The notes under the pieces are model-generated. The model did not search any database. It worked only from the letters and a program-made list of their open reading frames with translations, and had not been told where the DNA came from. Of a DNA stretch of 64,000 nucleotides, positions 1-19,000 are shown piece by piece. Origin of the DNA: Acidimicrobiales bacterium. GTDB taxonomy: Bacteria > Actinomycetota > Acidimicrobiia > Acidimicrobiales > Palsa-688. Made by a program: the position numbers and the translations under genes. Numbering within the stretch: position 1 is the first letter of the stretch; each line of letters starts with the position of its first letter. Where the stretch lies: NCBI GenBank assembly GCA_965276635.1, contig CBDIBC010000002.1, positions 102,528 through 166,527 of the forward strand, read 5' to 3'.

Positions 1-345
1 GTTGCCGATGTCGCGGGTGACCGGCGCCTCGTGACCCTCCCCCGGGCGGTGCGAGACCGTCCGCGAGGACAGCCAGTCGCACGAGAGCCGCAACACCGGA
101 TGGATCGTCCCGTCGGGCGCAGTCCCCCGCGACCGTATGCCGGCGATGCGCTCGAGGGCGTGCTGGTGCCGACCGCGCACGGGGCCGAGCTCCGGGATGC
201 CGAGCTGCGTGGGACCGAGCCGGTGCTGGGCCGCCAGATTGCAGATGAAGTCCCGGGCCACGCGCAACTGCTCGTCGGGGTTCCGGATCCGATAGAACCA
301 GGTGGCGCCCGACACCCGCTCGGACAGGACCGCTTCCCGCGCCAC
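1..345 (-). CDS. hypothetical protein, N-terminal part (gene runs off the 5' edge of the window)
   Basis: Open minus-strand frame (VAREAVLSERVSGATWFYRIRNPDEQLRVARDF...) with GC3 above 90%; candidate GTG start near 345; no recognisable family. Confidence 0.35.
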   Translation of the reverse strand, partial: MAREAVLSERVSGATWFYRIRNPDEQLRVARDFICNLAAQHRLGPTQLGIPELGPVRGRHQHALERIAGIRSRGTAPDGTIHPVLRLSCDWLSSRTVSHRPGEGHEAPVTRDIGN

Positions 346-518
346 CGGGGATGCGGTCAGCAGCGGTCACTGGGGCTCCGGCGATCTCCTCGATCCACGA
401 CAGGACGTCGCCAGGCAACTCCAGCCGCATCTCGGGCAACGCTCAGACCCCTCTCCCCGCAACACGTCCCTTTCTCCGACACTACTGCCGCGACCGAGGT
501 GCGGCCAGGAACGCCTGC

Positions 519-1190
519 CTATGGGGCGCGCAGGGCGGGCAGCGGCCTAGGTGCCTGCTGGGCGCCGGCGAACACGACCTCGGCCCGGGCCAACAGCACC
601 GGGCGCAGGCGGCGGCGGTCGCCGCGGCTCCAGCGGTACAGGGCGTCCATGGCCAGGGCGGCCATGACCCGGGCCAACTCCTCGGTGTCGGCGGTGTCGG
701 GGATCTCGCCCTGGCTGCGGGCTGCATCGAGGGCGACGCCGAACGCCTGGTGGATGTCAAGGCGTCCCGGGGCGGGCCGGGGGACGCCGTGGGCCCAGAA
801 CCCGGCCACGGATCGCATGACTGCCGCCCGGCCGACGGGCTCGACCCGCTTGGCCAACGAAACCATCAGGTGGCGGACCACGGCCAGCCCGGACCGGCGC
901 CCGTTGGTCGCCTTCACCGCCTCGTCGTACATCGCCTCCGCCGTAGCCCACCCCAGTTCCAGGAGGATGTCCTCCTTGTGGGCGAAGTGGAAGTAGAAGG
1001 TGCCCTTGGTGACTCCGGCCTCCTGGACGATCTCGTCGACTGTCGTGTCCTCGATGCCATGTTCGAAGCCGCGCTCGGTCCACAGCCGCAGGGCTGCTCG
1101 CACCAGCCGCCGTCGCGTCGCCTTCGAGCGGTCCTGGGCCAAGGCTGTACGCCGCGGTCCATTCGTCGTCAGTACCGGATCCGATTGCAC
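519..1190 (-). CDS. TetR family transcriptional regulator
   Basis: TRRRLVRAALRLWTERGFEHGIEDTTVDEIVQEAGVTKGTFYFHFAHKEDIL HTH motif; TTG/GTG start near 1190-1193. Confidence 0.8.
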   Translation of the reverse strand: MQSDPVLTTNGPRRTALAQDRSKATRRRLVRAALRLWTERGFEHGIEDTTVDEIVQEAGVTKGTFYFHFAHKEDILLELGWATAEAMYDEAVKATNGRRSGLAVVRHLMVSLAKRVEPVGRAAVMRSVAGFWAHGVPRPAPGRLDIHQAFGVALDAARSQGEIPDTADTEELARVMAALAMDALYRWSRGDRRRLRPVLLARAEVVFAGAQQAPRPLPALRAP

Positions 1191-1256
1191 CAAGGCTGGG
1201 GCTCCTTCTCGGTACCCCGGCGGGCACCATCCCGTGACGTTACTGTTGCAGCAGAC

Positions 1257-1892
1257 ATGGCAGACGACCGTCCCGCCCGCCGCCGCTCGGGCCTCTTGCA
1301 GGACCGTTCCCGCCAGACGCGCCAACGCTTGGTCCGAGCCGCCCTGGACCTCTGGAGCGGCCGGGGCTTCGAGAACGGCATCGAGCAGACCACCGTGGAT
1401 GAGATCGTGCAGGCTGCCGGAGTCACCAAGGGCACCTTCTACTTCCACTTCGCCCGCAAAGACGAGATCCTCCTGGAGATGGGCTGGGAGAGCGCGGAGG
1501 TGGTCGCCGAGGAAGTCCGTCGTTGCCTGCGGCGGGACCGCCCGTTGGCCGATTCGCTTGCCCGGGTCATCGCGGTCCTGGTCCGTCACATCCGGGCTGC
1601 GCCGCCGGCGGCGGTCGGCCGGGCCGCCGCCGAGTTCCGCCGGAACCCTATTGACTGGGGCGACGAAGTGGGGCGGCTGGACTTCGCCTCCGCCTTCGAG
1701 GCGCTGTTTGCCCGGGCTCGGGAGACCGGGGAGCTGGCCGAAGCCCTGGACCCGGCGGAGGCCGGCCAGATGCTGCAGGCACTGGTCATGGACTCGATCG
1801 TTGAGCACGCGTCGGGTCGCGCGGACCTCGGCGGCGCGCTGCGCCGGCGAGGCGCTCTTCTTGTCGCCGGGCTCGCCGGGGGGAGCCACTAG
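1257..1892 (+). CDS. TetR family transcriptional regulator (paralog of 519-1190, divergently arranged)
   Basis: MADDRPARRRSG..TRQRLVRAALDLWSGRGFENGIEQTTVDEIVQAAGVTKGTFYFHFARKDEIL; ATG at 1257. Confidence 0.85.
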   Translation: MADDRPARRRSGLLQDRSRQTRQRLVRAALDLWSGRGFENGIEQTTVDEIVQAAGVTKGTFYFHFARKDEILLEMGWESAEVVAEEVRRCLRRDRPLADSLARVIAVLVRHIRAAPPAAVGRAAAEFRRNPIDWGDEVGRLDFASAFEALFARARETGELAEALDPAEAGQMLQALVMDSIVEHASGRADLGGALRRRGALLVAGLAGGSH

Positions 1893-2014
1893 ATCGGGTG
1901 GTCGCTCACCCAGACGTCGTCGAAGCCGAGCTGCTCGGCGCGCGCTGCGGCACGCACGACGCCACCGGGTGTGATGGCTTTGCCGAGCTGGGGGAGGTAG
2001 ATCCCGAAACGCAT
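1889..2014 (-). pseudogene. N-terminal 41-aa remnant of an LLM-class F420-dependent oxidoreductase
   Basis: MRFGIYLPQLGKAITPGGVVRAAARAEQLGFDDVWVSDHPI then TAG; ATG lies 2 nt after the upstream ACAD stop; the stop overlaps the convergent TetR stop. Confidence 0.45.
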
Positions 2015-2016
2015 CA

Positions 2017-3309
2017 CTACCGGGTCGGGGCGCTCCGGGGGACGTCGCGGAAGGGGGTGTCCTTGTCGACGGTTCGCTCCCGGGGCATGCCGAGCACCCG
2101 CTCACTGATCACGTTGCGGCTCATCTCGGTGGTGCCTCCGCCGATGCAGGCGGCCTGGCGCATCAGGAAACCGACGCCGGCCTGCCCGGCGGCGTCCTCG
2201 TCCTCGTCCCACGCCACAGCCGACGAGCCGGCCAGCTCGAAGGCGATGGTCGACTGGCGGACCGAGGACGTCCCCCCGAACAGGCGGGTCACCGCCGCGG
2301 CCTGGTCGGTGGTGCGCCCGGTCCGGATGCCGTCGGCGATTCGCTCGGTCAGCGCCGGGCCCACCAGCTCGAGGGCCCGGGCCTCGCCGACCAGCTCCAG
2401 CGCGCGAGCCCGGCGGGACGGATCGGCGGTTTCGATGTGCTTGGCCAGGCCCCGAGCCCCGCCCTCGGCGCCGTGGGCCTCGCGCTGGCCAGCGGGGCGG
2501 GTCACGTACGGCGAGCCGCCGGCAACGGTGCGCTCGTGGTACATCCAACGCACCCCGACGCTCCAGCCCTGGTCGACCTCCCCGATGCGATCGGTGTCGG
2601 GGATCTGCAGGTCGGTGATGAACTCCTGGCAGAACTCCTTGGAGCCGTTGAGCATCTCGATCCGGTGAATCTCGATCGCCGGCTGGTGGATCTCCAGGAC
2701 GAAGACGCTCAGGCCTCGGTGCTTGGGAACGTCCCAGTTGGTGCGGGCCAGGCACAGGCCCCAGTCCGCCCACCACGCGCCGGTGGTCCAGATCTTCGAG
2801 CCGTTCATGACCCACTCGTCGCCGTCGCGCACGGCAGTGGTTTGGGCGCCGGCCGCATCGGAGCCGCCACTGGGCTCGGAGAGGAACTGCATCCAGAACG
2901 CCTCACCCTTGAGGATCGGCGGCACAAGCCGGCGCTTCTGCTCCTCGGTCCCGAACTCGAGGATTACCGCCATGCACGGTGTGAAGGTCGGGACCTGGGT
3001 TTCCGACGGGTAGTCGTAGCCGACGACCTCCCGGTTGAGCGCCTCCTGGTGGGCCAAGGTCAGGCCCTGGCCCCCGTACTCCGTCGGCACGCAGATGCCG
3101 GCCAGGCCACCGTCGAACAGGATCCGCTGTAACTCCCGGCACCGAGCGATGCGGGCAAGCTCCTCCTCGTCCGAACGGACGTAGTCCCCCCCGCCCCCCT
3201 CATCACTGCGGGCGGCCGGCGCCATGTTGGCGGCCAGCCACTCGCGAGCCCGCTGGGTGAAGTCCTCTACGGACTCCGTATCGGTGCTGCTCGTCGTGGT
3301 GGTGGTCAT
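2017..3309 (-). CDS. acyl-CoA dehydrogenase
   Basis: MTTTTTSST..; ACAD N, middle (WMQFLSEPSGGSDAAG, GSKIWTTGA) and C-terminal motifs; RBS GGAG upstream of ATG at 3309. Confidence 0.85.
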   Translation of the reverse strand: MTTTTTSSTDTESVEDFTQRAREWLAANMAPAARSDEGGGGDYVRSDEEELARIARCRELQRILFDGGLAGICVPTEYGGQGLTLAHQEALNREVVGYDYPSETQVPTFTPCMAVILEFGTEEQKRRLVPPILKGEAFWMQFLSEPSGGSDAAGAQTTAVRDGDEWVMNGSKIWTTGAWWADWGLCLARTNWDVPKHRGLSVFVLEIHQPAIEIHRIEMLNGSKEFCQEFITDLQIPDTDRIGEVDQGWSVGVRWMYHERTVAGGSPYVTRPAGQREAHGAEGGARGLAKHIETADPSRRARALELVGEARALELVGPALTERIADGIRTGRTTDQAAAVTRLFGGTSSVRQSTIAFELAGSSAVAWDEDEDAAGQAGVGFLMRQAACIGGGTTEMSRNVISERVLGMPRERTVDKDTPFRDVPRSAPTR

Positions 3310-3320
3310 CGGTCGGTCTC

Positions 3321-4442
3321 CTAGGAGGCGGTGGCCACCGGCGAGGTGGCGCTGGCGTGGACGAGCCCACCCAGGCGGGCGGCGTGTTCGGCCGGGGCGC
3401 CGAAGGCGGGGACGTTGGACGTGACCCGGCGCAGGAAGAGGTGGAGGTCGTGGTCGAAGGTGACGCCGATACCGCCGTGGAGCTGGACGCAGTCCTGCAG
3501 CATCTCCGCCCCATGCAGCCCGACGTAGTACTTGGCTGCGCTCACCACCTCGGAGCGGTCGGCGCTGTCGTCCTCCACGGTGTGCGCCGCCCGGGCGGAG
3601 ATCGCGTAGCTGCCTTCCAGCCACATTTTCATGTCCGCGAACCGATGCTTGATCTCCTGGTAGGACGCCAGCGGCCGGCCGAAGGAATAGCGGTGGAACG
3701 CCCAGTCGAGGGTCGTGTCCATGGCCCATTGCATGCAGCCGACGATCTCGGCGACGCCGAGGAGGGCACCCAGGTCCTCAAGCCAGGCGACCGCACCGTC
3801 GGCCGCCGCTCCCTCGGCCACGACGCCGCCGGTTGGGACCCGCACGCCATCGAAATCCAGACGGGCGAAGCGCCTGGTCATATCCAGCCCCTGCAACGGC
3901 GTGGCAGTCAGCCCGGAGGCGTCGCCGGGGACCAAGTAGAGCGCGGTACCGCCGACGGTCCGAGCCGTCACCAGTACGTCGGCCGCCTCGGTGCCTGCCT
4001 CCACCGGTCCGCTGCGGCCACGGAGCGCGATGGTCTCGCCGTCAACCCGGGCGTCGATGGATCCGCAGGCCCATGCAGCGGTACGCTCTCCCGCCAGGAG
4101 CGCGGCGAGGGGTCCGGCGTGCTGTGCCCCGGTGCCCCACCGGCCCAGGGCAGCCGCGACCAGGTTGGTGGGGCCCAGCGGGCCGGGGGCAGCCTGCAGG
4201 CCGAACTCGTAGGCCACGAGGACCAGGTCGAGCACGCCGTCACCGCTCACGCTCCCGCCACCGGCGGCCTCGGGGACGACCAGGGACGTCCAGCCCAACT
4301 CGGCACCCCGGCGCCAGAAGTCGGGCTCGAAGCCGGCCTTGGTCCCGGCCAGGGCGCGCACCTTGGTGAGCGGAGACTGCGCCGCGAGGAACTTCCTGGT
4401 GGTCTCCTCGAACAGTTGCTGGTCTTCGGTGCGGTCGAACAT
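3321..4442 (-). CDS. acyl-CoA dehydrogenase family protein (partner subunit of the adjacent ACAD)
   Basis: MFDRTEDQQLFEETTRKF..; ACAD fold; the YEG position reads AFG; stop lies 11 nt before the downstream ACAD start. Confidence 0.8.
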   Translation of the reverse strand: MFDRTEDQQLFEETTRKFLAAQSPLTKVRALAGTKAGFEPDFWRRGAELGWTSLVVPEAAGGGSVSGDGVLDLVLVAYEFGLQAAPGPLGPTNLVAAALGRWGTGAQHAGPLAALLAGERTAAWACGSIDARVDGETIALRGRSGPVEAGTEAADVLVTARTVGGTALYLVPGDASGLTATPLQGLDMTRRFARLDFDGVRVPTGGVVAEGAAADGAVAWLEDLGALLGVAEIVGCMQWAMDTTLDWAFHRYSFGRPLASYQEIKHRFADMKMWLEGSYAISARAAHTVEDDSADRSEVVSAAKYYVGLHGAEMLQDCVQLHGGIGVTFDHDLHLFLRRVTSNVPAFGAPAEHAARLGGLVHASATSPVATAS

Positions 4443-4877
4443 CCTGGCCGGCTCCTCCCCCTCGGCATGCTGCGCCCGGCGGCGCCGGGGTAATCGTATC
4501 GCTATTGCACAGCGCGCGACATCGGGCCGTCCGGGCCGGCAAGTGGCGGCCCGTCGTAGGTCTCCAGGCTCGTGAACTCCTCGACCCGGTGGGCGGCGCA
4601 GGCGGGTGATCTGCCGCTGCGGCCGGCCTAGCGGGACGGTGCAGGCCAGGACATGATCGGCCAGAAGCCCGAGTATCTCTTTCACCGCGAGTTCCTGGCG
4701 CACCAGCACCGTGGTGATGACTCCGCCGAACCCTGCGGCGCGCGCTGGGGCAGGATGTTGTGGGCAAAGGGGTACACCGAGCCCTCGGCGCTGATGCTCA
4801 GTCGCCCCAGCCCGCTGTCCATCGCCATGACCCGCGTCAGGTCCAGCGAGATGAGAAGTAACACCGGTGCCGCTCGG

Positions 4878-5426
4878 ATGGTGGCTGCCGAAGTGCCGGC
4901 CACGCTGTCGAGGATGAACCGCCGGGACTTCGAAGCTGACGATGTCGAGTGGGCAGCAAAGCTCATGGAGCGACGACGGCAGGTCTGCGCTGGCTACTCA
5001 CCGATGTTTTGGCGGCCAGCAGCTGGGGTGACCGGGCTACACGCCGGGTTCCTCAGCTGCCTTGCCGCCAACCCGGCCAACGTGTGCCTGCGAGCGGAAC
5101 ACGGCTTCGTCGTCGGTCAGCTCCGCCAGGCCGAGTGCTTCGTGGACGACTTCGCTGTCGACGAAACAGGGATCTGGGGTGACGACGGGCGGGATTTGCT
5201 TGACGAGCTGTGGGCGCGGGTCGCAAACGACACGCCCACCACCATGCGTGTCGTGACCGCAAGGGCGGACCGGGACAAGGTGGCAATGCTCACCGCCGCC
5301 GGCCTGATCCTGGCTGAGCAATGGTGGGTCAAGCCGCTCGAATCGACTGCAGCATCCGACACTGCCTCCGGCCGCGTGACAGGACCAGGGTTCTCGGGAC
5401 TGCTCGGTCCAGCTCCGCCGGTCTAG
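4878..5426 (+). CDS. putative GNAT-family acetyltransferase (start uncertain)
   Basis: HGFVVGQ..FVDDFAVDETGIWGDDGRDLLDELWARVANDT..AAGLILAEQWW resembles an acetyltransferase core; weak. Confidence 0.3.
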   Translation: MVAAEVPATLSRMNRRDFEADDVEWAAKLMERRRQVCAGYSPMFWRPAAGVTGLHAGFLSCLAANPANVCLRAEHGFVVGQLRQAECFVDDFAVDETGIWGDDGRDLLDELWARVANDTPTTMRVVTARADRDKVAMLTAAGLILAEQWWVKPLESTAASDTASGRVTGPGFSGLLGPAPPV

Positions 5427-8231: not shown

Positions 8232-8984
8232 TTACCGGGATGAGGTACCTGGTCGCGGGTCGCCAAGCTGGAGGGCCTCGATTGCACGGTCGAGCCATTC
8301 GGCCATGAGCTGTCGTTCGGCGTCGCTCAGCATGTCGAGTCGCGGCGCGACCGCACGGAAGGCGACGGACGTGGCCATCGGCCCGTCGTCCGAACGTTCG
8401 GGCCCATTCGTGAGGATCTGCTGGAGAACTGCCTTGTACATGGCGTCGGCGAGACCGGGATCACGGTGCTTGGGCGGCATCGACAGCAGCGCCAGAATCG
8501 TTCCCATCCCTGCCGCCTGAACGAGGTCGACGGCGCGCTGTTCGCCGACACACAGCCGTCCGGTCAGCGCGACCCGGTGAACTCGCGATTCCAAAACGTG
8601 CTTGCCCGATCGCGCTGCGGGCGAGTGCACCACTCGGTCCGGATCGCTGAGAAGACGGAAGAGGGTCGGGTTAGCGACGCCGAAGTCGATCTGGGTCACC
8701 CATCCGGCGCGCAGATCCTCGAGCGGATCGACGTCATCTGCCGTTGCCGCCTCCACAACCGCAGCTTTGGCAGACACGTAGGTCGCCATCACATGCTCGG
8801 CCACGGCCTCGAGCAAGCCGTCCTTATCGCCAAACAGACGGTAGAGCGTTGGCGCTTGCACACCGGCTCCGTCGGCGACCCCGCGCGTGGTGACCGCCAC
8901 CGGCCCTTGCTCTCGAAGCAAACGCGCTGCGACATCGACGATTTTCGCCCGCATGTCGCTCCGGCTGGTTGTGGCATCGACCAT
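8232..8984 (-). CDS. TetR family transcriptional regulator
   Basis: MRAKIVDVAARLLREQGPVAVTTRGVADGAGVQAPTLYRLFGDKDGLL. Confidence 0.8.
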   Translation of the reverse strand: MVDATTSRSDMRAKIVDVAARLLREQGPVAVTTRGVADGAGVQAPTLYRLFGDKDGLLEAVAEHVMATYVSAKAAVVEAATADDVDPLEDLRAGWVTQIDFGVANPTLFRLLSDPDRVVHSPAARSGKHVLESRVHRVALTGRLCVGEQRAVDLVQAAGMGTILALLSMPPKHRDPGLADAMYKAVLQQILTNGPERSDDGPMATSVAFRAVAPRLDMLSDAERQLMAEWLDRAIEALQLGDPRPGTSSR

Positions 8985-9041: not shown

Positions 9042-9056
9042 ATTCCATCGTTAGCA

Positions 9057-9644
9057 ATGAGACTGGTCATGATCATCGTCACCGGAGCCACGGGCGCCCT
9101 CAACGGCGCAACCGTCAATCACCTGCTGGACCGCATACCTGTCGACGAGATCGTCGTGATCGCGCGCAACACGGCCAAGGCCCAGCGCTTGGCGGATCGC
9201 AGCGTGGCCGTACGGCACGACGACTACGCCGACCCGGATTCCCTGCCGGTCGCATTCGAGGGTGCTGATCAGCTGCTGCTGGTGTCGTCCAGCGATCCGG
9301 GTGCTGACGCCGTGAGCCTGCACCGCCTCGCGATTGACGCAGCAGTCACCGCAGGTGTCCGACGGATCCTTTACACGATCCACCAGGGCGCTGCACTCGA
9401 CACCCCGTTCGGCCCGGGCCGCGACCACGCCGCGACCGAGCAGCTGCTCGCCGAGTCCGGCGTCGCCTGGACCTCGCTGCGCAACGGCTTCTACGCCCAC
9501 AGCCTCAACTGGCTGATGGGCCCGTGGCTCGAGACCGGAGTCATCGCCGTGCCCGCCGACGGACCGGTCTCGTGGACCGCACGCGAGGACGCCGCCGAGG
9601 CATCGAGCCGGAGGCCACCCGGGACCGGCTCGGTGAAGGCCTAG
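9057..9644 (+). pseudogene. NmrA-family NAD(P)H-binding protein, C-terminally truncated and fused to an LLM fragment
   Basis: MRLVMIIVTGATGALNGATVNHLL..RRILYTIHQGAALD..LRNGFYAHSLNWLM; only about 190 aa present before the frame changes. Confidence 0.55.
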
Positions 9645-10061
9645 CCGCAATCCTCCGCCTACTGCGCGGGGAGGTGGTTACCGAGACCACCGACTGGTAT
9701 ACCCTGAATGACGGTCGCACTCATCTCCGGCCCTACACCCAGCCGCATCCGGAGGTGTGCGTGGCCAGTGCCGTGACTCCCTCTGGTGGCCGCCTCGCAG
9801 GCCGCTACGACCTGGGGATGCTCTGCGTAGCGGCCGGGGAGCCGCTGGGTCACCGCCAACCAGGAGGAGCTGGTGACCAAGCGGGTAGCAGCTGCCACCC
9901 AGATGTTCGCCAAGCACGAGGCGGAGCAGGCCTCCAAGGGTCCTCGCCCCGAACAGCTTTCAGTCACCGACGTCGCCTTCAGCGGCCAGCTGATCGGTCG
10001 ATCCCAAACCGGCGATGTGACGGCCCGGGGCGGTGCTGAGCGGCAGCCGGGTAGCCGATGA
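9605..10061 (+). pseudogene. internal fragment of an LLM-class flavin/F420-dependent oxidoreductase
   Basis: AILRLLRGEVVTETTDWYTLNDGRTHLRPYTQPHPEVCVASAVTPSGGRLAGRYDLGM; no N- or C-terminus; frame changes. Confidence 0.45.
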
Positions 10062-10081
10062 GCGGCTTGTAGGATACTTCG

Positions 10082-10732
10082 ATGGCTACTGGCGAGCAGG
10101 CTCGCGTCGCAGCGCTGCGATCACCGGGTCGACCCCGCCTCTACGAGCCGGATGCCGAGCGAGACCGAATCCTGAGCGCCGCCATCGAGGTGCTGCGACG
10201 CAACGACGGCGAGGAGGCCACCCTCGCCGACATCCTCACCGAGGCTGGGTTGTCGACGCGAGCCTTTTACCGGCACTTCCAGAGCAAAGAGGACGTGATC
10301 CGGGCCCTCTACGGGCGTGACGCTGAGTCCTTCGCCAACCATCTCCGCCGCTACGTCGACGCTGCGCCCGATCCGCTGGCTGCGCTCACTGCTTGGATCA
10401 ACGAGGTGTTGGGCTTGGCCTACGACCGTCGGCGGGCCGAGCGGCTGGCGGCCCTCAGCTCGGCGATGATCACCCGGATCGTTGCCGGGACCCCCGTGCA
10501 GGAGGTCGGCGACGCGCTGTACGTCGAGCCGCTGCGGGCTGTTCTCGAGGAGGGCCTGCGCAGCGGGGCCTTCCCGGCGGCCCGGCCCGAGCTTGACGTG
10601 CGGACAATCCGGGCCGCCACCTGGGAGGCGGTCAACTGGGCACGAAGCCGCCCCGTTCGCCTGACCAGGCGAGAGGCATTGGACCATGTCCTGCGCTTCA
10701 GCCTCCCTGCCCTCGGGGTCGCGCCGGCATAG
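10082..10732 (+). CDS. TetR family transcriptional regulator
   Basis: DRILSAAIEVLRRNDGEEATLADILTEAGLSTRAFYRHFQSKEDVI. Confidence 0.8.
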   Translation: MATGEQARVAALRSPGRPRLYEPDAERDRILSAAIEVLRRNDGEEATLADILTEAGLSTRAFYRHFQSKEDVIRALYGRDAESFANHLRRYVDAAPDPLAALTAWINEVLGLAYDRRRAERLAALSSAMITRIVAGTPVQEVGDALYVEPLRAVLEEGLRSGAFPAARPELDVRTIRAATWEAVNWARSRPVRLTRREALDHVLRFSLPALGVAPA

Positions 10733-10860: not shown

Positions 10861-11769
10861 ATGCGCTTTATATTCCAGTATCCAGAGGTCCAAGGCAGCG
10901 ACGGCGATCTTCTCGACTCCGGTCCGGTGGCAGATCTGGCCAAGGGGGCGGAGGCGGCTGGATGGGACGGGTTCGCGTTCACCGAGCACCCTGCACCCGG
11001 AGCCCGGTGGCTGGCGACGGGCGGCCACCAGACGCTGGATCCGTTCGTGGCGCTCGGCCATGTCGCTGCGGTGACCACCCACCTCCGACTGCTGACCTAT
11101 CTGAGCGTTCTGCCCTACCGCAACCCGCTCCTCCTGGCCAAGGCGGCGGCCACCGTGGACAAGTTGTCGGGTGGCCGCATGATCCTGGGGGCGGGGACCG
11201 GGTACCTCAAGTCGGAGTTCTTCGCCCTCGGCGTGGACTTCGACGAGCGCAACGACCTCTTTGACGAGGCCCTGGAGGTGATGGCCCGGCACTGGAGCGG
11301 GGAGGCGTTCTCACAGCGCGGCAGGCACTTCGACGCCCGCGATATCAAGGCGAGGCCCCGACCGGTGCAGGATCCGATCCCGGTCTGGATCGGCGGCAAC
11401 TCCAAGCTGACCCTGCGCCGGGTGACGGAGCGGGCCCAGGGGTGGATGCCGCTGACCGGGCCGGCCGAGCTCGCCCACACCGCCCGCACGGCATATCTGG
11501 CGACCTTCGACGACGTCCGCGCCCGCATCGAGCTTCTCAAGGACATGGCTGGCGACCGGGCCAACGCTCTCGACATCGCCCTTGGCTACACCGACGCCTC
11601 GGTAAGCCATCCCGACAGCGATGTCGAGCGCCACCGCGACGTCCTCGGCCACCTGGGATCCATCGGCGTGGGATGGGTAGTGGTCGCCGGGCCGAGCGGT
11701 TCGCCCCAGGCGTCGCTGGACTTCATCGCCGCCTTCGCCGCCAACTACATTGGCGGCGACAGCCGGTGA
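10861..11769 (+). CDS. LLM-class F420-dependent oxidoreductase (luciferase-like)
   Basis: MRFIFQYPE..; FAFTEHP, LGAGTGYLKSEF, PIPVWIGGNS motifs. Confidence 0.8.
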   Translation: MRFIFQYPEVQGSDGDLLDSGPVADLAKGAEAAGWDGFAFTEHPAPGARWLATGGHQTLDPFVALGHVAAVTTHLRLLTYLSVLPYRNPLLLAKAAATVDKLSGGRMILGAGTGYLKSEFFALGVDFDERNDLFDEALEVMARHWSGEAFSQRGRHFDARDIKARPRPVQDPIPVWIGGNSKLTLRRVTERAQGWMPLTGPAELAHTARTAYLATFDDVRARIELLKDMAGDRANALDIALGYTDASVSHPDSDVERHRDVLGHLGSIGVGWVVVAGPSGSPQASLDFIAAFAANYIGGDSR

Positions 11770-12344
11770 GCGCCCCTGACGGCACCGGACCGGTATCGAT
11801 GGGACCGGTCCGGCTCGGTCCGCTGGCCGACGATCAGCTCTCGCCCCGACAGCGTGAGGTGGTGCAGGAGGCGGTCGTCGGCTCGACGGTCAACATCTAC
11901 CGGAGCATGGTGCGGGCCACCGAGCCGGCCGCGGCCATGTTCAACATGGGCCGGACGTTGCGCCGGGAGGGGCTGACCGACCGCCAGCGCGAGATCCTCA
12001 TCCTGCGCACGGGCTGGAAGTGCGCCTCGGGGTACGAGTTGGCCCAGCACCAGCGGGTGGCACGTGCCGCCGGCATGACCGTAGCTGACATGGAGCGCAT
12101 CCGCCGCGGACCGGATGCCGCCGGCTGGGAGCCCGGCGAAGCGGCGCTATGCCGGGCCGCAGACGAGCTGCACGACACCGGAACCCTCAACGACGCCACG
12201 TGGGCGGCGCTTGCCGAGCGCCACGACGAGGCCCAGGTCATCGGGGTCGTGATGCTCGTCGGCTACTACCACCTGGTGTCGTATTGCCTCAACGCCCTTG
12301 GCGTACCACTGGAGAAGGGCACCGAGCCGTTTGCCACAGGTTGA
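11766..12344 (+). CDS. carboxymuconolactone decarboxylase (CMD/AhpD-like) family protein
   Basis: GTGA overlap with the LLM stop; LTDRQREILILRTGWKCASGYELAQHQ CMD motif. Confidence 0.7.
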   Translation: MSAPDGTGPVSMGPVRLGPLADDQLSPRQREVVQEAVVGSTVNIYRSMVRATEPAAAMFNMGRTLRREGLTDRQREILILRTGWKCASGYELAQHQRVARAAGMTVADMERIRRGPDAAGWEPGEAALCRAADELHDTGTLNDATWAALAERHDEAQVIGVVMLVGYYHLVSYCLNALGVPLEKGTEPFATG

Positions 12345-13276: not shown

Positions 13277-13930
13277 CTACGCCGGACCGTTGGGGAACTT
13301 CAGCAGCGACCCGGCGTCGACCCGCAGCTGTTGGCCGGTCACGTAGCGCGACTCGTCGGAGGCCAGCCAGAGCACCGCATTCGAGATGTCGACCGGCTCT
13401 ACGTAGGGGATCGGCATGGCCTGGAAGTACGTGAACGCCGGCAGGGCGTCCTCGCGCGTCGGGTTCTCCAGGTCGGGGCGGAACGTCTTGTAGAGGCCTT
13501 CGTTGTTGAGCAGGTGCGTGTTGCAGTTTGTCGGGTGGATGGCATTGGCGCGAATGAAGCGGGGGGCGAGGTGAAGGCGATCTGCTCGGTGTAGCCGATC
13601 AACGTCTTCTTCGACCACGAATAGCCCGCACCGCAGCGCAGATCAACTTCTCACCGCCGAGCGCCGCGGGGCAGACGTTTCTCAGCACCTTGAAGCAGTA
13701 CGACACTTCCTTCACCCGCGACATCCCGGACTTCGGGTTGCTCGGGTCGGCGATCTCGGTCCAGTTGGCCGCCTACGGGCTCAGCTTGGCCGGAGCCAAT
13801 CCGACGTCGTCGATGTTCATCTCCAAGCTGCGCCAGGTGGACAGCTGGGACGACAACGGGCTGCTGTCCGACAACCCCGCCCACTTCACCGGGTTCGGCA
13901 ACGCCGCCAGCTCGGGCCGCGAGGCTGTGC
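13277..13930 (-). pseudogene. short-chain dehydrogenase (carveol-DH-like SDR) remnant, C-terminal part intact, upstream part frameshifted
   Basis: IRANAIHPTNCNTHLLN..PIPYVEPVDISNAVLWLASDESRYVTGQQLRVDAGSLLK; no Rossmann N-terminus in frame. Confidence 0.5.
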
Positions 13931-17794: not shown

Positions 17795-19000
17795 ATGGAC
17801 ACCGAAGACCGGCAGGTCGTCGACAACGCCGTCGACCACCTCCTCGAGGAGCATCCCCCGGCGTCAACCGAGCCTGTGGAGTTCCTGCGGGCACAGTTCG
17901 ACGCCGGACTGGCCTACGTCTGGTTCCCGCCGGGTTACGGGGGCTTGGGGCTACCCCTCGAGTTGCAGCAGGCCGTCGACCTGCGGCTTGCTGCGGCCGG
18001 AGCTCCGCCGAGCGGCCGTACGACCAACGCCATCGCCGCCGGACAGGGAGCGGCCAGCATCCTGGCCTACGGCAGCGAGGACCAGAAGCGCCGTTACCTC
18101 CGACCGCTCTTCACGGCCGAGCTGATGGGTTGTCAGCTCTACAGCGAGCCCGGCTCGGGTTCGGACCTTGCGTCCCTCGCCACTCGAGCCGTACGCGACG
18201 GCGATGAGTGGGTCGTCGACGGGCAGAAGGTGTGGACCTCTGGAGCCCATCGCGCCGACATCGCCATTCTCCTGGCCCGGACCGATCTCACGGTTCCCAA
18301 GCACGCCGGGCTGACCCAGTTCGTCGTCGACATGCACGACCCGGGCGTCGAAGTACGGCCGCTGCGGCAGATGTCGGGCGGCGCCGAGTTCAACGAGGTG
18401 TTCCTCGGCGGGGTGCGGGTTCCGGACTCCGAGCGACTGGGCGAGGTCAATGACGGCTGGGCGGTGTCGCAGCACACCTTGCTGGCCGAGCGCTACAACA
18501 TGCCCCAGGTGGCCAGTCGCGGGGAAGGAGCCATCTCCCTGGCCGTCGATGCGTGGCAACGACGGCAGGACAAGAGCTCACCGACGGCACGAGCCCTGCG
18601 GGCGGAGTTGCTTCGCCACTGGGTCGACAACGAGGTGCTCCGCCTGCTGTTGCGCCGGGCGGCCGAGCGGCGGGCTCTCGGGATCGCCGGTCCGGAGGGC
18701 TCGCTCGGGAAGGTGGCGGTCTCCGCCACGCTGCGACGACTGAACGAGTGGGCACCGGCACTCCTCGGCGCCGAGGGCTGCATCCTGCCAGAAGGGTACG
18801 ACTCGCTGCCGGACGACCGGGTCGGGATGCGCAGGATGGCCTCCGATCTCGCCGCAGCGTGCGTCGGCAGCCCCGGGGTTGCCATCGCCGGCGGCACCGA
18901 TCAGATCCAGCGGAACATCATCGGCGACCGGGTGCTCGGCTTGCCCCGTGAACCGGCGGTCGATCGGGGGGCGCCCTGGATCCAGACGCCGCGCAACTGA
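17795..19000 (+). CDS. acyl-CoA dehydrogenase
   Basis: YSEPGSGSDLASLATRAVRDGDEWVVDGQKVWTSGA..IAGGTDQIQRNIIGDRVLGLPRE. Confidence 0.85.
   Translation: MDTEDRQVVDNAVDHLLEEHPPASTEPVEFLRAQFDAGLAYVWFPPGYGGLGLPLELQQAVDLRLAAAGAPPSGRTTNAIAAGQGAASILAYGSEDQKRRYLRPLFTAELMGCQLYSEPGSGSDLASLATRAVRDGDEWVVDGQKVWTSGAHRADIAILLARTDLTVPKHAGLTQFVVDMHDPGVEVRPLRQMSGGAEFNEVFLGGVRVPDSERLGEVNDGWAVSQHTLLAERYNMPQVASRGEGAISLAVDAWQRRQDKSSPTARALRAELLRHWVDNEVLRLLLRRAAERRALGIAGPEGSLGKVAVSATLRRLNEWAPALLGAEGCILPEGYDSLPDDRVGMRRMASDLAAACVGSPGVAIAGGTDQIQRNIIGDRVLGLPREPAVDRGAPWIQTPRN

Follow-up and report, generated by a model that had tools for sequence, protein, structure and literature searches.

The subject of this analysis is a stretch of 64,000 nucleotides (contig CBDIBC010000002.1, positions 102,528 to 166,527 of the forward strand; hereafter the window) from an uncultured bacterium of the Acidimicrobiales, and within it a 41-codon open reading frame (ORF), here called the stub, that lies between two genes for acyl-CoA dehydrogenases (ACADs) and two genes for TetR-family regulators and that reads like the beginning of a gene for a luciferase-like oxidoreductase (LLM). 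The window has a G+C content of 69%, and its positions 1-4950 were read for features. We use LLM1 for the gene that follows ACAD1 in relatives and LLM2 for a second LLM gene between their TetR genes, and AKR and APH stand for aldo-keto reductase and for an APH-like phosphotransferase. The features, with window positions and strand, are as follows, those nearest to the stub being given before the outlying ones:

1889-2014, minus strand: LLM1 remnant, TIGR03619-type, recognised by homology to intact LLM1; 40 homologous codons, 2 junction codons and a stop.
1889-1896: putative deletion junction, read from the sequence; 4 unassignable nt (1893-1896) and a CTAG palindrome (1889-1892).
1257-1892, plus strand: TetR-B, intact, 211 amino acids; PF00440, E=3.7e-13.
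1191-1256: divergent promoter region common to both TetR genes, supported by alignment with the LLM2/TetR-A intergenic region of relatives.
1211-1228: inverted repeat GGTACCC-CGGC-GGGCACC, candidate TetR operator; a 7-4-7 palindrome with one mismatch.
1237-1244, minus strand: conserved AGTAACGT, containing a -10-like TAACGT for TetR-A; its core is kept in relatives.
519-1190, minus strand: TetR-A, intact, 223 amino acids from the GTG at 1190 (alternative start TTG 1193); PF00440, E=7.9e-15.
2017-3309, minus strand: ACAD1, intact, 430 amino acids, alpha-subunit-like; Pfam ACAD N, M and C domains.
3321-4442, minus strand: ACAD2, intact, 373 amino acids, beta-subunit-like; recognised as an ACAD by Pfam.
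4532-4927, minus strand: nitroreductase remnant upstream of ACAD2, C-terminal half with two frameshifts, found by tblastn with the L146 protein.
1-441, minus strand, running off the left edge: 5' part of an APH-like phosphotransferase pseudogene, aligned to a 462-amino-acid orthologue from L001.

The stub starts with an ATG (2014-2012) placed 2 nt past the stop codon of ACAD1 (TAG, 2019-2017), encodes MRFGIYLPQLGKAITPGGVVRAAARAEQLGFDDVWVSDHPI and ends at a TAG (1891-1889) that overlaps the TAG of TetR-B (1890-1892). Both the LLM-like start and the overlapping stops had been pointed out in the original prediction, which was made from this DNA alone, and both are borne out by the sequence; the two stops overlap because the DNA at 1889-1892 is the palindrome CTAG, which gives TAG on both strands. 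The Pfam profile Bac_luciferase (PF00296) matches the stub over profile positions 1-46 of 314 (E=3.2e-5), and the score of 23.9 bits stays below the gathering score of 27.9 because the N-terminus alone exists, the complete TIM barrel of about 275-315 amino acids being absent.

Relatives of the locus came from three sets, all annotated by tblastn. A scan with ACAD1 over one genome per species yielded 64 loci, mostly from metagenome-assembled genomes of Acidimicrobiaceae/Acidimicrobiia. A scan of metagenome contigs with TetR-B yielded 80 loci, with no relative above 68% amino acid identity. A protein search with ACAD1, combined with gene context, added seven loci with DNA (L145-L151) and one contig represented by gene calls only (P0005). 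In the fullest relative the order is nitroreductase, ACAD2, ACAD1 and LLM1, followed in the opposite direction by TetR-B and LLM2, and then in the first direction again by TetR-A, AKR and the APH-like kinase. The arrangements after ACAD1 are listed below, where forward means the orientation of the ACAD genes:

L022: LLM1 (276 amino acids) forward; TetR-B and LLM2 reverse; TetR-A, AKR and APH forward.
L146: LLM1 (275 amino acids) forward, then the end of the contig.
L145 and L147: LLM1, cut off by the contig end.
L148: LLM1 (275 amino acids) and TetR-A, both forward with 12 nt between them; TetR-B absent.
L001, L002, L149 and L151: LLM1 absent; TetR-B and LLM2 reverse, then TetR-A and further genes forward.
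P0005 contig (gene calls only): a TetR gene (212 amino acids) reverse, 89 nt, and a TetR gene (220 amino acids) forward; both LLM genes absent.
L150: TetR and LLM genes absent.
Window: LLM1 stub forward, TetR-B reverse, TetR-A and the APH remnant forward.

Against the intact LLM1 of L022, L146 and L148 the stub is 67-77% identical over 39 amino acids (tblastn E=1e-17 to 2e-19), a match far beyond chance which, together with the shared genomic position, makes the stub orthologous to a bona fide family member. These intact orthologues have 275-276 amino acids and begin 8-17 nt after ACAD1; LLM1 of L022 scores above the TIGR03619 threshold (211.6 versus 166.9 bits) and LLM2 above that of TIGR03564, both being families of F420-dependent LLM oxidoreductases. 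The original prediction had taken the two ACAD genes and the LLM gene to be an operon and had proposed a comparison of synteny with relatives. That comparison showed the operon intact in L022, L146 and L148, with LLM1 at exactly the position that the stub occupies in the window, and since these relatives carry an intact LLM of 275-276 amino acids there, the operon exists and the window has a broken copy of its last gene. The remaining flanks agree with this assignment, as both the segment ACAD2-ACAD1-LLM1 and the segment TetR-B/TetR-A are colinear with those of L022, where the syntenic LLM1 is intact.

Colinearity with L022 at the DNA level extends from ACAD2 through ACAD1 into LLM1 (window 1899-4461 against L022 11414-8833, 75.9% identity by blastn). 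Homology to LLM1 ends at window position 1899 by blastn and, by inspection of L146, L148 and L022, after ...AGCGACCACC at window position 1897, the first base of codon 41. On the other side, homology to TetR-B is clear leftwards from about position 1880, and we place its resumption at about 1849-1880 and the right-hand breakpoint somewhere in 1868-1892. Scaled on L022, the missing stretch runs from codon 41 of LLM1 to the TetR-B stop and amounts to about 0.8 kb, including about 235 codons of LLM1. We found no LLM1 sequence beyond residues 1-40 within the 64-kb window, and sensitive searches of the gaps at 442-518 and 1191-1256 gave no LLM1 sequence either. The window does hold a paralogous LLM-class gene (10861-11445, plus strand), about 9 kb away and 31% identical to LLM1 of L022, which is not the missing part.

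The end of TetR-B is unusual, its tail past AGL being AGGSH, while the orthologues all differ in having R or K followed by 5-6 residues. We examined the origin of the junction by aligning the 37 nt past the last homologous base (1860-1896) with the sequence downstream in LLM1 and with the TetR-B 3' tails of relatives, using shuffled sequences for comparison. LLM1 and four of the five tails gave scores within shuffle expectation, reached by about 13% to 76% of the shuffles; the score against the L065 tail was reached by about 3%, and it reflects a 10-nt match inside the coding part of TetR-B. The idea that the new TetR-B tail is LLM1 sequence read in antisense is unsupported, because the alignment scores against LLM1 are within shuffle expectation.

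At the same junction, L022 carries a 9-nt tandem repeat (GTCAGGCGG, 6.1 copies, 12180-12234) that abuts and overlaps the TetR-B stop codon and that on the TetR-B strand repeats the last codons plus the stop; it could be a slippage-prone site at the LLM1/TetR-B junction. Where LLM1 would be expected in L002 (11471-11747) there are repeats, 130 and 91 nt long and composed of GTGCCCAC...GTGGGCAC palindromes, and the promoter regions of that locus upstream of ACAD2 and of TetR-A (8671-8715 and 13599-13649) contain tandem repeats of 9 nt in 5 copies and of 11 nt in 4.6 copies.

The divergent TetR pair announced in the original prediction is present, and both genes are intact. The stop codon of TetR-A is at 519-521, and the spacer between the two genes measures 66 nt with the GTG start or 63 nt with the TTG start. 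The TetR_N profile (PF00440) lies above its gathering score in both proteins, both align end to end with their orthologues, and about 160-175 residues align to the solved structures 6srn, 1ui5 and 3ang, as expected from the full-length two-domain build of the family. Their paralogy is likewise upheld (BLASTP, 45% identity over 184 amino acids, E=2e-46), and the resemblance is uneven, with 49 of 64 positions (77%) identical in the N-terminal DNA-binding part and 38 of 138 (28%) elsewhere; at the DNA level the segments coding for the helix-turn-helix (HTH) form an inverted repeat of 215 nt (922-1136 and 1299-1513) that is 76% complementary. On this pattern of identity, TetR-A and TetR-B are paralogues with similar DNA-reading heads and different ligand-binding bodies.

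Full-length orthologues of TetR-A occur in L001, L002, L065, L148 and L149 (62-70% identity) and those of TetR-B in L001, L002, L022, L065, L149 and L151 (66-70%). Both are found at the same site and in the same orientation downstream of ACAD1 in L001, L002, L022, L149 and L151, and the P0005 contig from JGI, with the same arrangement of TetR genes according to gene calls alone, is a probable sixth relative. This contig (sample 3300067032), in which ACAD1 is followed after 17 nt by the adjacent divergent pair, has the arrangement nearest to that of the window. In a joint tree of the TetR proteins, the TetR-A and the TetR-B clades each contain the window, L001, L002, L065, L104 and L149, and the TetR-A clade is monophyletic in 199 of 200 bootstraps. 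Because each clade holds the window together with its relatives, the duplication is older than all these lineages. Within both clades the window proteins take the same outgroup position, and they are about equally diverged from all relatives. They also sit on longer branches than their orthologues, and for TetR-A the distance of the window from L001, L002 and L149 exceeds that of L148 by about 5.5 identity points, compared with 1.4-2.2 points for the ACADs. This excess divergence could hint at relaxed constraint on the window TetRs but is too weak for a claim of relaxed selection.

These results separate the parts of the interpretation given in the original prediction. The paralogous regulators, the truncated LLM and the ACAD-ACAD-LLM operon all stand, and what falls is the cause assigned to the truncation, namely that the TetR pair had entered as an inserted or duplicated cassette. 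The pair occupies the same site in five sequenced relatives, its duplication is old, and we saw no marks of insertion: there are no direct or inverted repeats flanking the pair, the sole internal repeat being the two HTH-coding segments, and no mobility gene in the region, where every ORF is accounted for. The TetR genes and LLM1 can coexist, since L022 combines both regulators with a full-length LLM1. Moreover, an insertion would leave the remainder of the LLM gene beyond the pair, and its absence from 442-518 and from the rest of the window counts against such an event.

Loss at this junction is, in turn, recurrent, as L001 and L002 have no vestige of LLM1 and the gene survives in L022, which the ACAD tree places as the sister of L001. 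That near-complete deletions of genes occur around these TetR genes can be seen in L065, where the two regulators are 208 nt apart and a 12-codon ORF (MRIDVAEVATRG*, in the interval 676-885) lies just upstream of the TetR-B start and overlaps it; this ORF consists of the first 3-4 and the last 8 or so codons of LLM2 and is the scar of a near-complete in-frame deletion. L148 has yet another layout (9051-10559), operon-like, with LLM1 and TetR-A on the same strand, TetR-B and LLM2 absent, and a convergent gene for a WYL-domain regulator.

Two further genes of this cluster are decaying as well. The APH-like gene aligns to its L001 orthologue over amino acids 1-31 in one frame and about 87-184 in another, with a jump from there to about 290-305; deletion has thus cost it about 55 internal codons, with a change of frame, and a further stretch of about 100 codons that included the kinase core, and no Pfam domain is recognised when the pieces are joined and translated. 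The 242-amino-acid nitroreductase of L146 matches the window over amino acids 111-242 only (tblastn), with two frame changes in the three-frame translation, and relatives have an intact nitroreductase (236-242 amino acids) at this position. In place of the N-terminal half stands an unrelated GNAT-like ORF, encoded on the opposite strand (about 4911-5426), where synteny with the relatives ends; their upstream DUF7064 gene and second aldo-keto reductase gene are absent from the window. Three frameshifts and several large deletions are in this way concentrated in about 0.84 kb of the APH-like and nitroreductase sequences, and the 3.7 kb of ACAD1, ACAD2, TetR-A and TetR-B align end to end with their orthologues with no lesion. 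By our own calculation, the conditional probability that all three frameshifts fall by chance within 0.84 of the 4.54 kb is about 0.006. This clustering points to real local pseudogenes and not to random assembly error. A coding-density map of the whole window based on G+C at third codon positions (GC3) was crude and too noisy for an estimate of pseudogene load.

Taken together, the limits of homology, the intact LLM1 genes at the corresponding position, the conserved placement of the TetR genes, the age of their duplication and the neighbouring pseudogenes make it quite likely that the stub is the leftover start of LLM1 after a deletion of about 0.8 kb beside long-resident TetR paralogues, in a cluster undergoing ordinary decay. 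The ancestral cluster would have been organised as in related Acidimicrobiaceae/Acidimicrobiia, the window containing an eroded copy of it in which both TetR genes were already resident before the deletion. What was probably a single event would have taken both LLM1 from codon 41 onwards and the convergent spacer, reaching the 3' end of TetR-B and perhaps its last few codons, and would have left the 41-codon stub, whose frame closes on the CTAG that also terminates TetR-B. The stub cannot be a working LLM enzyme, because about 85% of the TIM barrel is gone and about 15% is left. It is a dead remnant; it is not a leader peptide, and no insertion produced it.

Several observations weigh against this reading. 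The ACAD tree is nearly a star, and the window pairs in 63% of the bootstraps with L148, in which LLM1 is directly followed by TetR-A and TetR-B is missing, so that a one-step recombination which brought in TetR-B and clipped LLM1 becomes conceivable, if less parsimonious. The TetR trees place the window outside the lineages that carry LLM2, and the distant L104 also has an adjacent TetR pair, so that the window may have lost LLM2 and AKR, as synteny with its neighbours in the ACAD tree suggests, or may never have carried them. The nearest relative found in the ACAD1 protein search is about 81% identical, and at that distance the ancestral sequence and the breakpoints can only be approximated. 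Finally, the databases contain the source contig just once, and the junction accordingly depends on one assembly. The order of genes in L148 and the weak grouping of the window with it are what favours the recombination, in which a segment carrying TetR-B, together with the TetR-A-proximal promoter, would have entered an L148-like ancestor by illegitimate recombination and replaced the 3' 85% of LLM1. We regard this as quite unlikely, given that in L022 an intact LLM1 is separated from TetR-A by TetR-B, LLM2 and the promoter region, that TetR-B stands at the same site in the five sequenced loci and in the contig represented by gene calls, and that repeats, a target duplication and a mobility gene are all lacking in the region. 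In addition, the equal divergence of the two window regulators and their shared outgroup position are as expected for co-inheritance.

The dependence on one metagenome-derived contig, of which the databases hold no second copy, also raises the suspicion that a collapse or mis-join produced the junction and that the real genome has an intact LLM1, the more so as relatives from similar projects (L022, L032 and L151) contain obvious frameshift errors. Such an artefact is very improbable in our view: only three neighbouring genes, all of them non-essential, carry lesions and the 3.7 kb of ACAD and TetR sequence reads cleanly, no repeat at the junction could have driven a collapse, and compact natural arrangements are known, without LLM1 in L001 and L149 and without either LLM gene in the P0005 contig. 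We give still less credence, indeed hardly any, to the retention of the stub as a functional small ORF, coupled to the translation of ACAD1 or serving antisense read-through into TetR-B. Its start 2 nt past the ACAD1 stop would suit coupling, and a terminator between the convergent units, had there been one, would have gone with the deletion; a single terminator-like site is present, inside TetR-B. The sequence is, however, that of a plain enzyme N-terminus, no recognisable ribosome-binding site precedes it, and no other lineage has a stub. A naturally short LLM-like leader conserved at orthologous loci, which the original prediction had named as the observation that would speak against a destroyed gene, was not seen among the relatives, which have a full LLM1 or none.

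The spacer between the TetR genes contains elements bearing on how they may be regulated. Its 66 nt align with part of the 190-220 nt that separate LLM2 from TetR-A in relatives, namely with the roughly 55 nt nearest to TetR-A. The near-palindrome GTGACGTTAC (1234-1243), put forward originally as a shared operator, does not hold up in that role, since its palindromic ends are unconserved and its core overlaps a conserved -10-like element; it occurs in one copy in the window and is not enriched, the chance expectation being 2.3 per window at one mismatch. The core aligns with AGTA(A/T)CGT upstream of TetR-A in relatives. The -10-like element, on the minus strand at 1237-1244, resembles the TANNNT hexamer and would serve TetR-A; the window, L001, L002, L065 and L149 share its core GTA(A/T)CGT, with A or G in front of it, and L022 has CTATCGT. 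A possible -10 element for TetR-B, TACTGT at 1241-1246, was seen by eye alone and would make the TetR-B mRNA nearly leaderless.

The inverted repeat at 1211-1228 is a better operator candidate than GTGACGTTAC. An equivalent, imperfect repeat of the form GGTRYC-N6-GRYACC lies at the same place upstream of TetR-A and is convincing in L001, L002 and L065 and weak in L022 (L149 was left unscored). In the window the repeat is unique at zero mismatches, allowing up to three mismatches adds two weak and distant matches at 17922 and 50197, and that search of the window found no copy upstream of ACAD2. A GC-rich palindrome upstream of ACAD2 was considered as a second copy and not counted, having 10 nt in common with the repeat and a different spacing. 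The regulators probably repress their own divergent promoter of 63-66 nt through this repeat, and they possibly regulate the neighbouring catabolic genes as well. Scans of the region with Rfam, for tRNA genes and for promoter consensus sequences returned nothing, and the terminator-like site inside TetR-B, on the TetR-B strand, is at chance level.

As to the ACAD genes themselves, which are separated by 11 nt, ACAD1 is 100% identical to the protein P0001, which comes from a 386-kb NCBI/ENA contig. Its best solved relatives are 6wy8_B and 4x28_A (E=1e-33), and the only solved relatives of ACAD2 at E<1e-15 are 6wy8_A and 4x28_D (E=1e-22). Because they match two different chains of the same heteromeric complexes, ACAD1 and ACAD2 probably form a heteromeric alpha/beta enzyme, as predicted from these matches. 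The complexes in question are the alpha2beta2 enzymes ChsE4-ChsE5 (4x28) and Tcur3483/Tcur3481 of Thermomonospora curvata (6wy8), which act in steroid/ring degradation; the window proteins match both chains of each, yet they are distant from them in sequence and score below the NCBIfam cut-offs for PimC/PimD and IpdE2.

The best solved relatives of the TetR proteins are weak (3ang, 1ui5 and 6srn, E=1e-10 to 1e-11), and the nearest NCBIfam model, the ScbR family NF041196, gives 75-81 bits against a cut-off of 150. The window proteins resemble 3ang/3anp, which we take to be the acyl-CoA-responsive FadR of Thermus thermophilus, and CprB (1ui5, of the gamma-butyrolactone-receptor type) in the HTH domain and in overall length, and they show features of ordinary TetR regulators in adjoining acyl-CoA catabolic genes and in having an inverted repeat in their own promoter region. 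They differ from the solved proteins in being two paralogues placed head to head with similar heads and different ligand domains. KstR and KstR2 are two TetR repressors of steroid-catabolic ACAD genes in mycobacteria and share with the window pair the association of two TetR-family regulators with heteromeric ACAD genes, but they are not an adjacent divergent paralogous pair.

Considered beside known F420-dependent LLM oxidoreductases of the TIGR03619 type (PF00296), the stub aligns with the first 40 or so residues and lacks about 85% of the TIM barrel. Deletion-biased decay of pseudogenes is the theme of two earlier papers ('Deletional Bias across the Three Domains of Life', PMC2817411; 'The Extinction Dynamics of Bacterial Pseudogenes', PMC2916853). 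The stub has the usual traits of such a remnant, being a short in-frame N-terminal leftover with frameshifted and deleted neighbours and with intact orthologues elsewhere; it differs in that the organism is an uncultured high-GC (69%) actinobacterium of a free-living type and not a host-restricted one. The stub is a standard product of deletion-biased pseudogene decay and a new instance of a well-known process. The cluster is eroding and highly plastic, and a specialist would find no surprise in these findings.

One further interpretation is unlikely, and we offer it as a speculation: the TetR paralogues may be a conserved two-sensor switch that is orphaned in the window, the enzyme genes around it having been lost repeatedly, with read-through from the ACAD genes acting as an antisense control of TetR-B. 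If this were true, the enzymes lost independently across Acidimicrobiia would be two F420-dependent LLMs, an aldo-keto reductase and an APH-like kinase, and the deletion would have brought the ACAD operon and TetR-B together tail-to-tail, no terminator separating the two.

The findings matter chiefly for annotation, where the stub should be recorded as a pseudogene remnant and not as a small protein, and the TetR genes should not be recorded as a mobile cassette. The candidate repeat at 1211-1228 offers a testable operator for an uncharacterised TetR pair beside heteromeric ACAD genes. More broadly, the locus is a small and clean illustration of the stepwise dismantling of a catabolic cluster in uncultured soil actinobacteria: depending on the sister lineage, LLM1 is complete, truncated or missing, and in another lineage a 12-codon scar is what is left of a second LLM gene.

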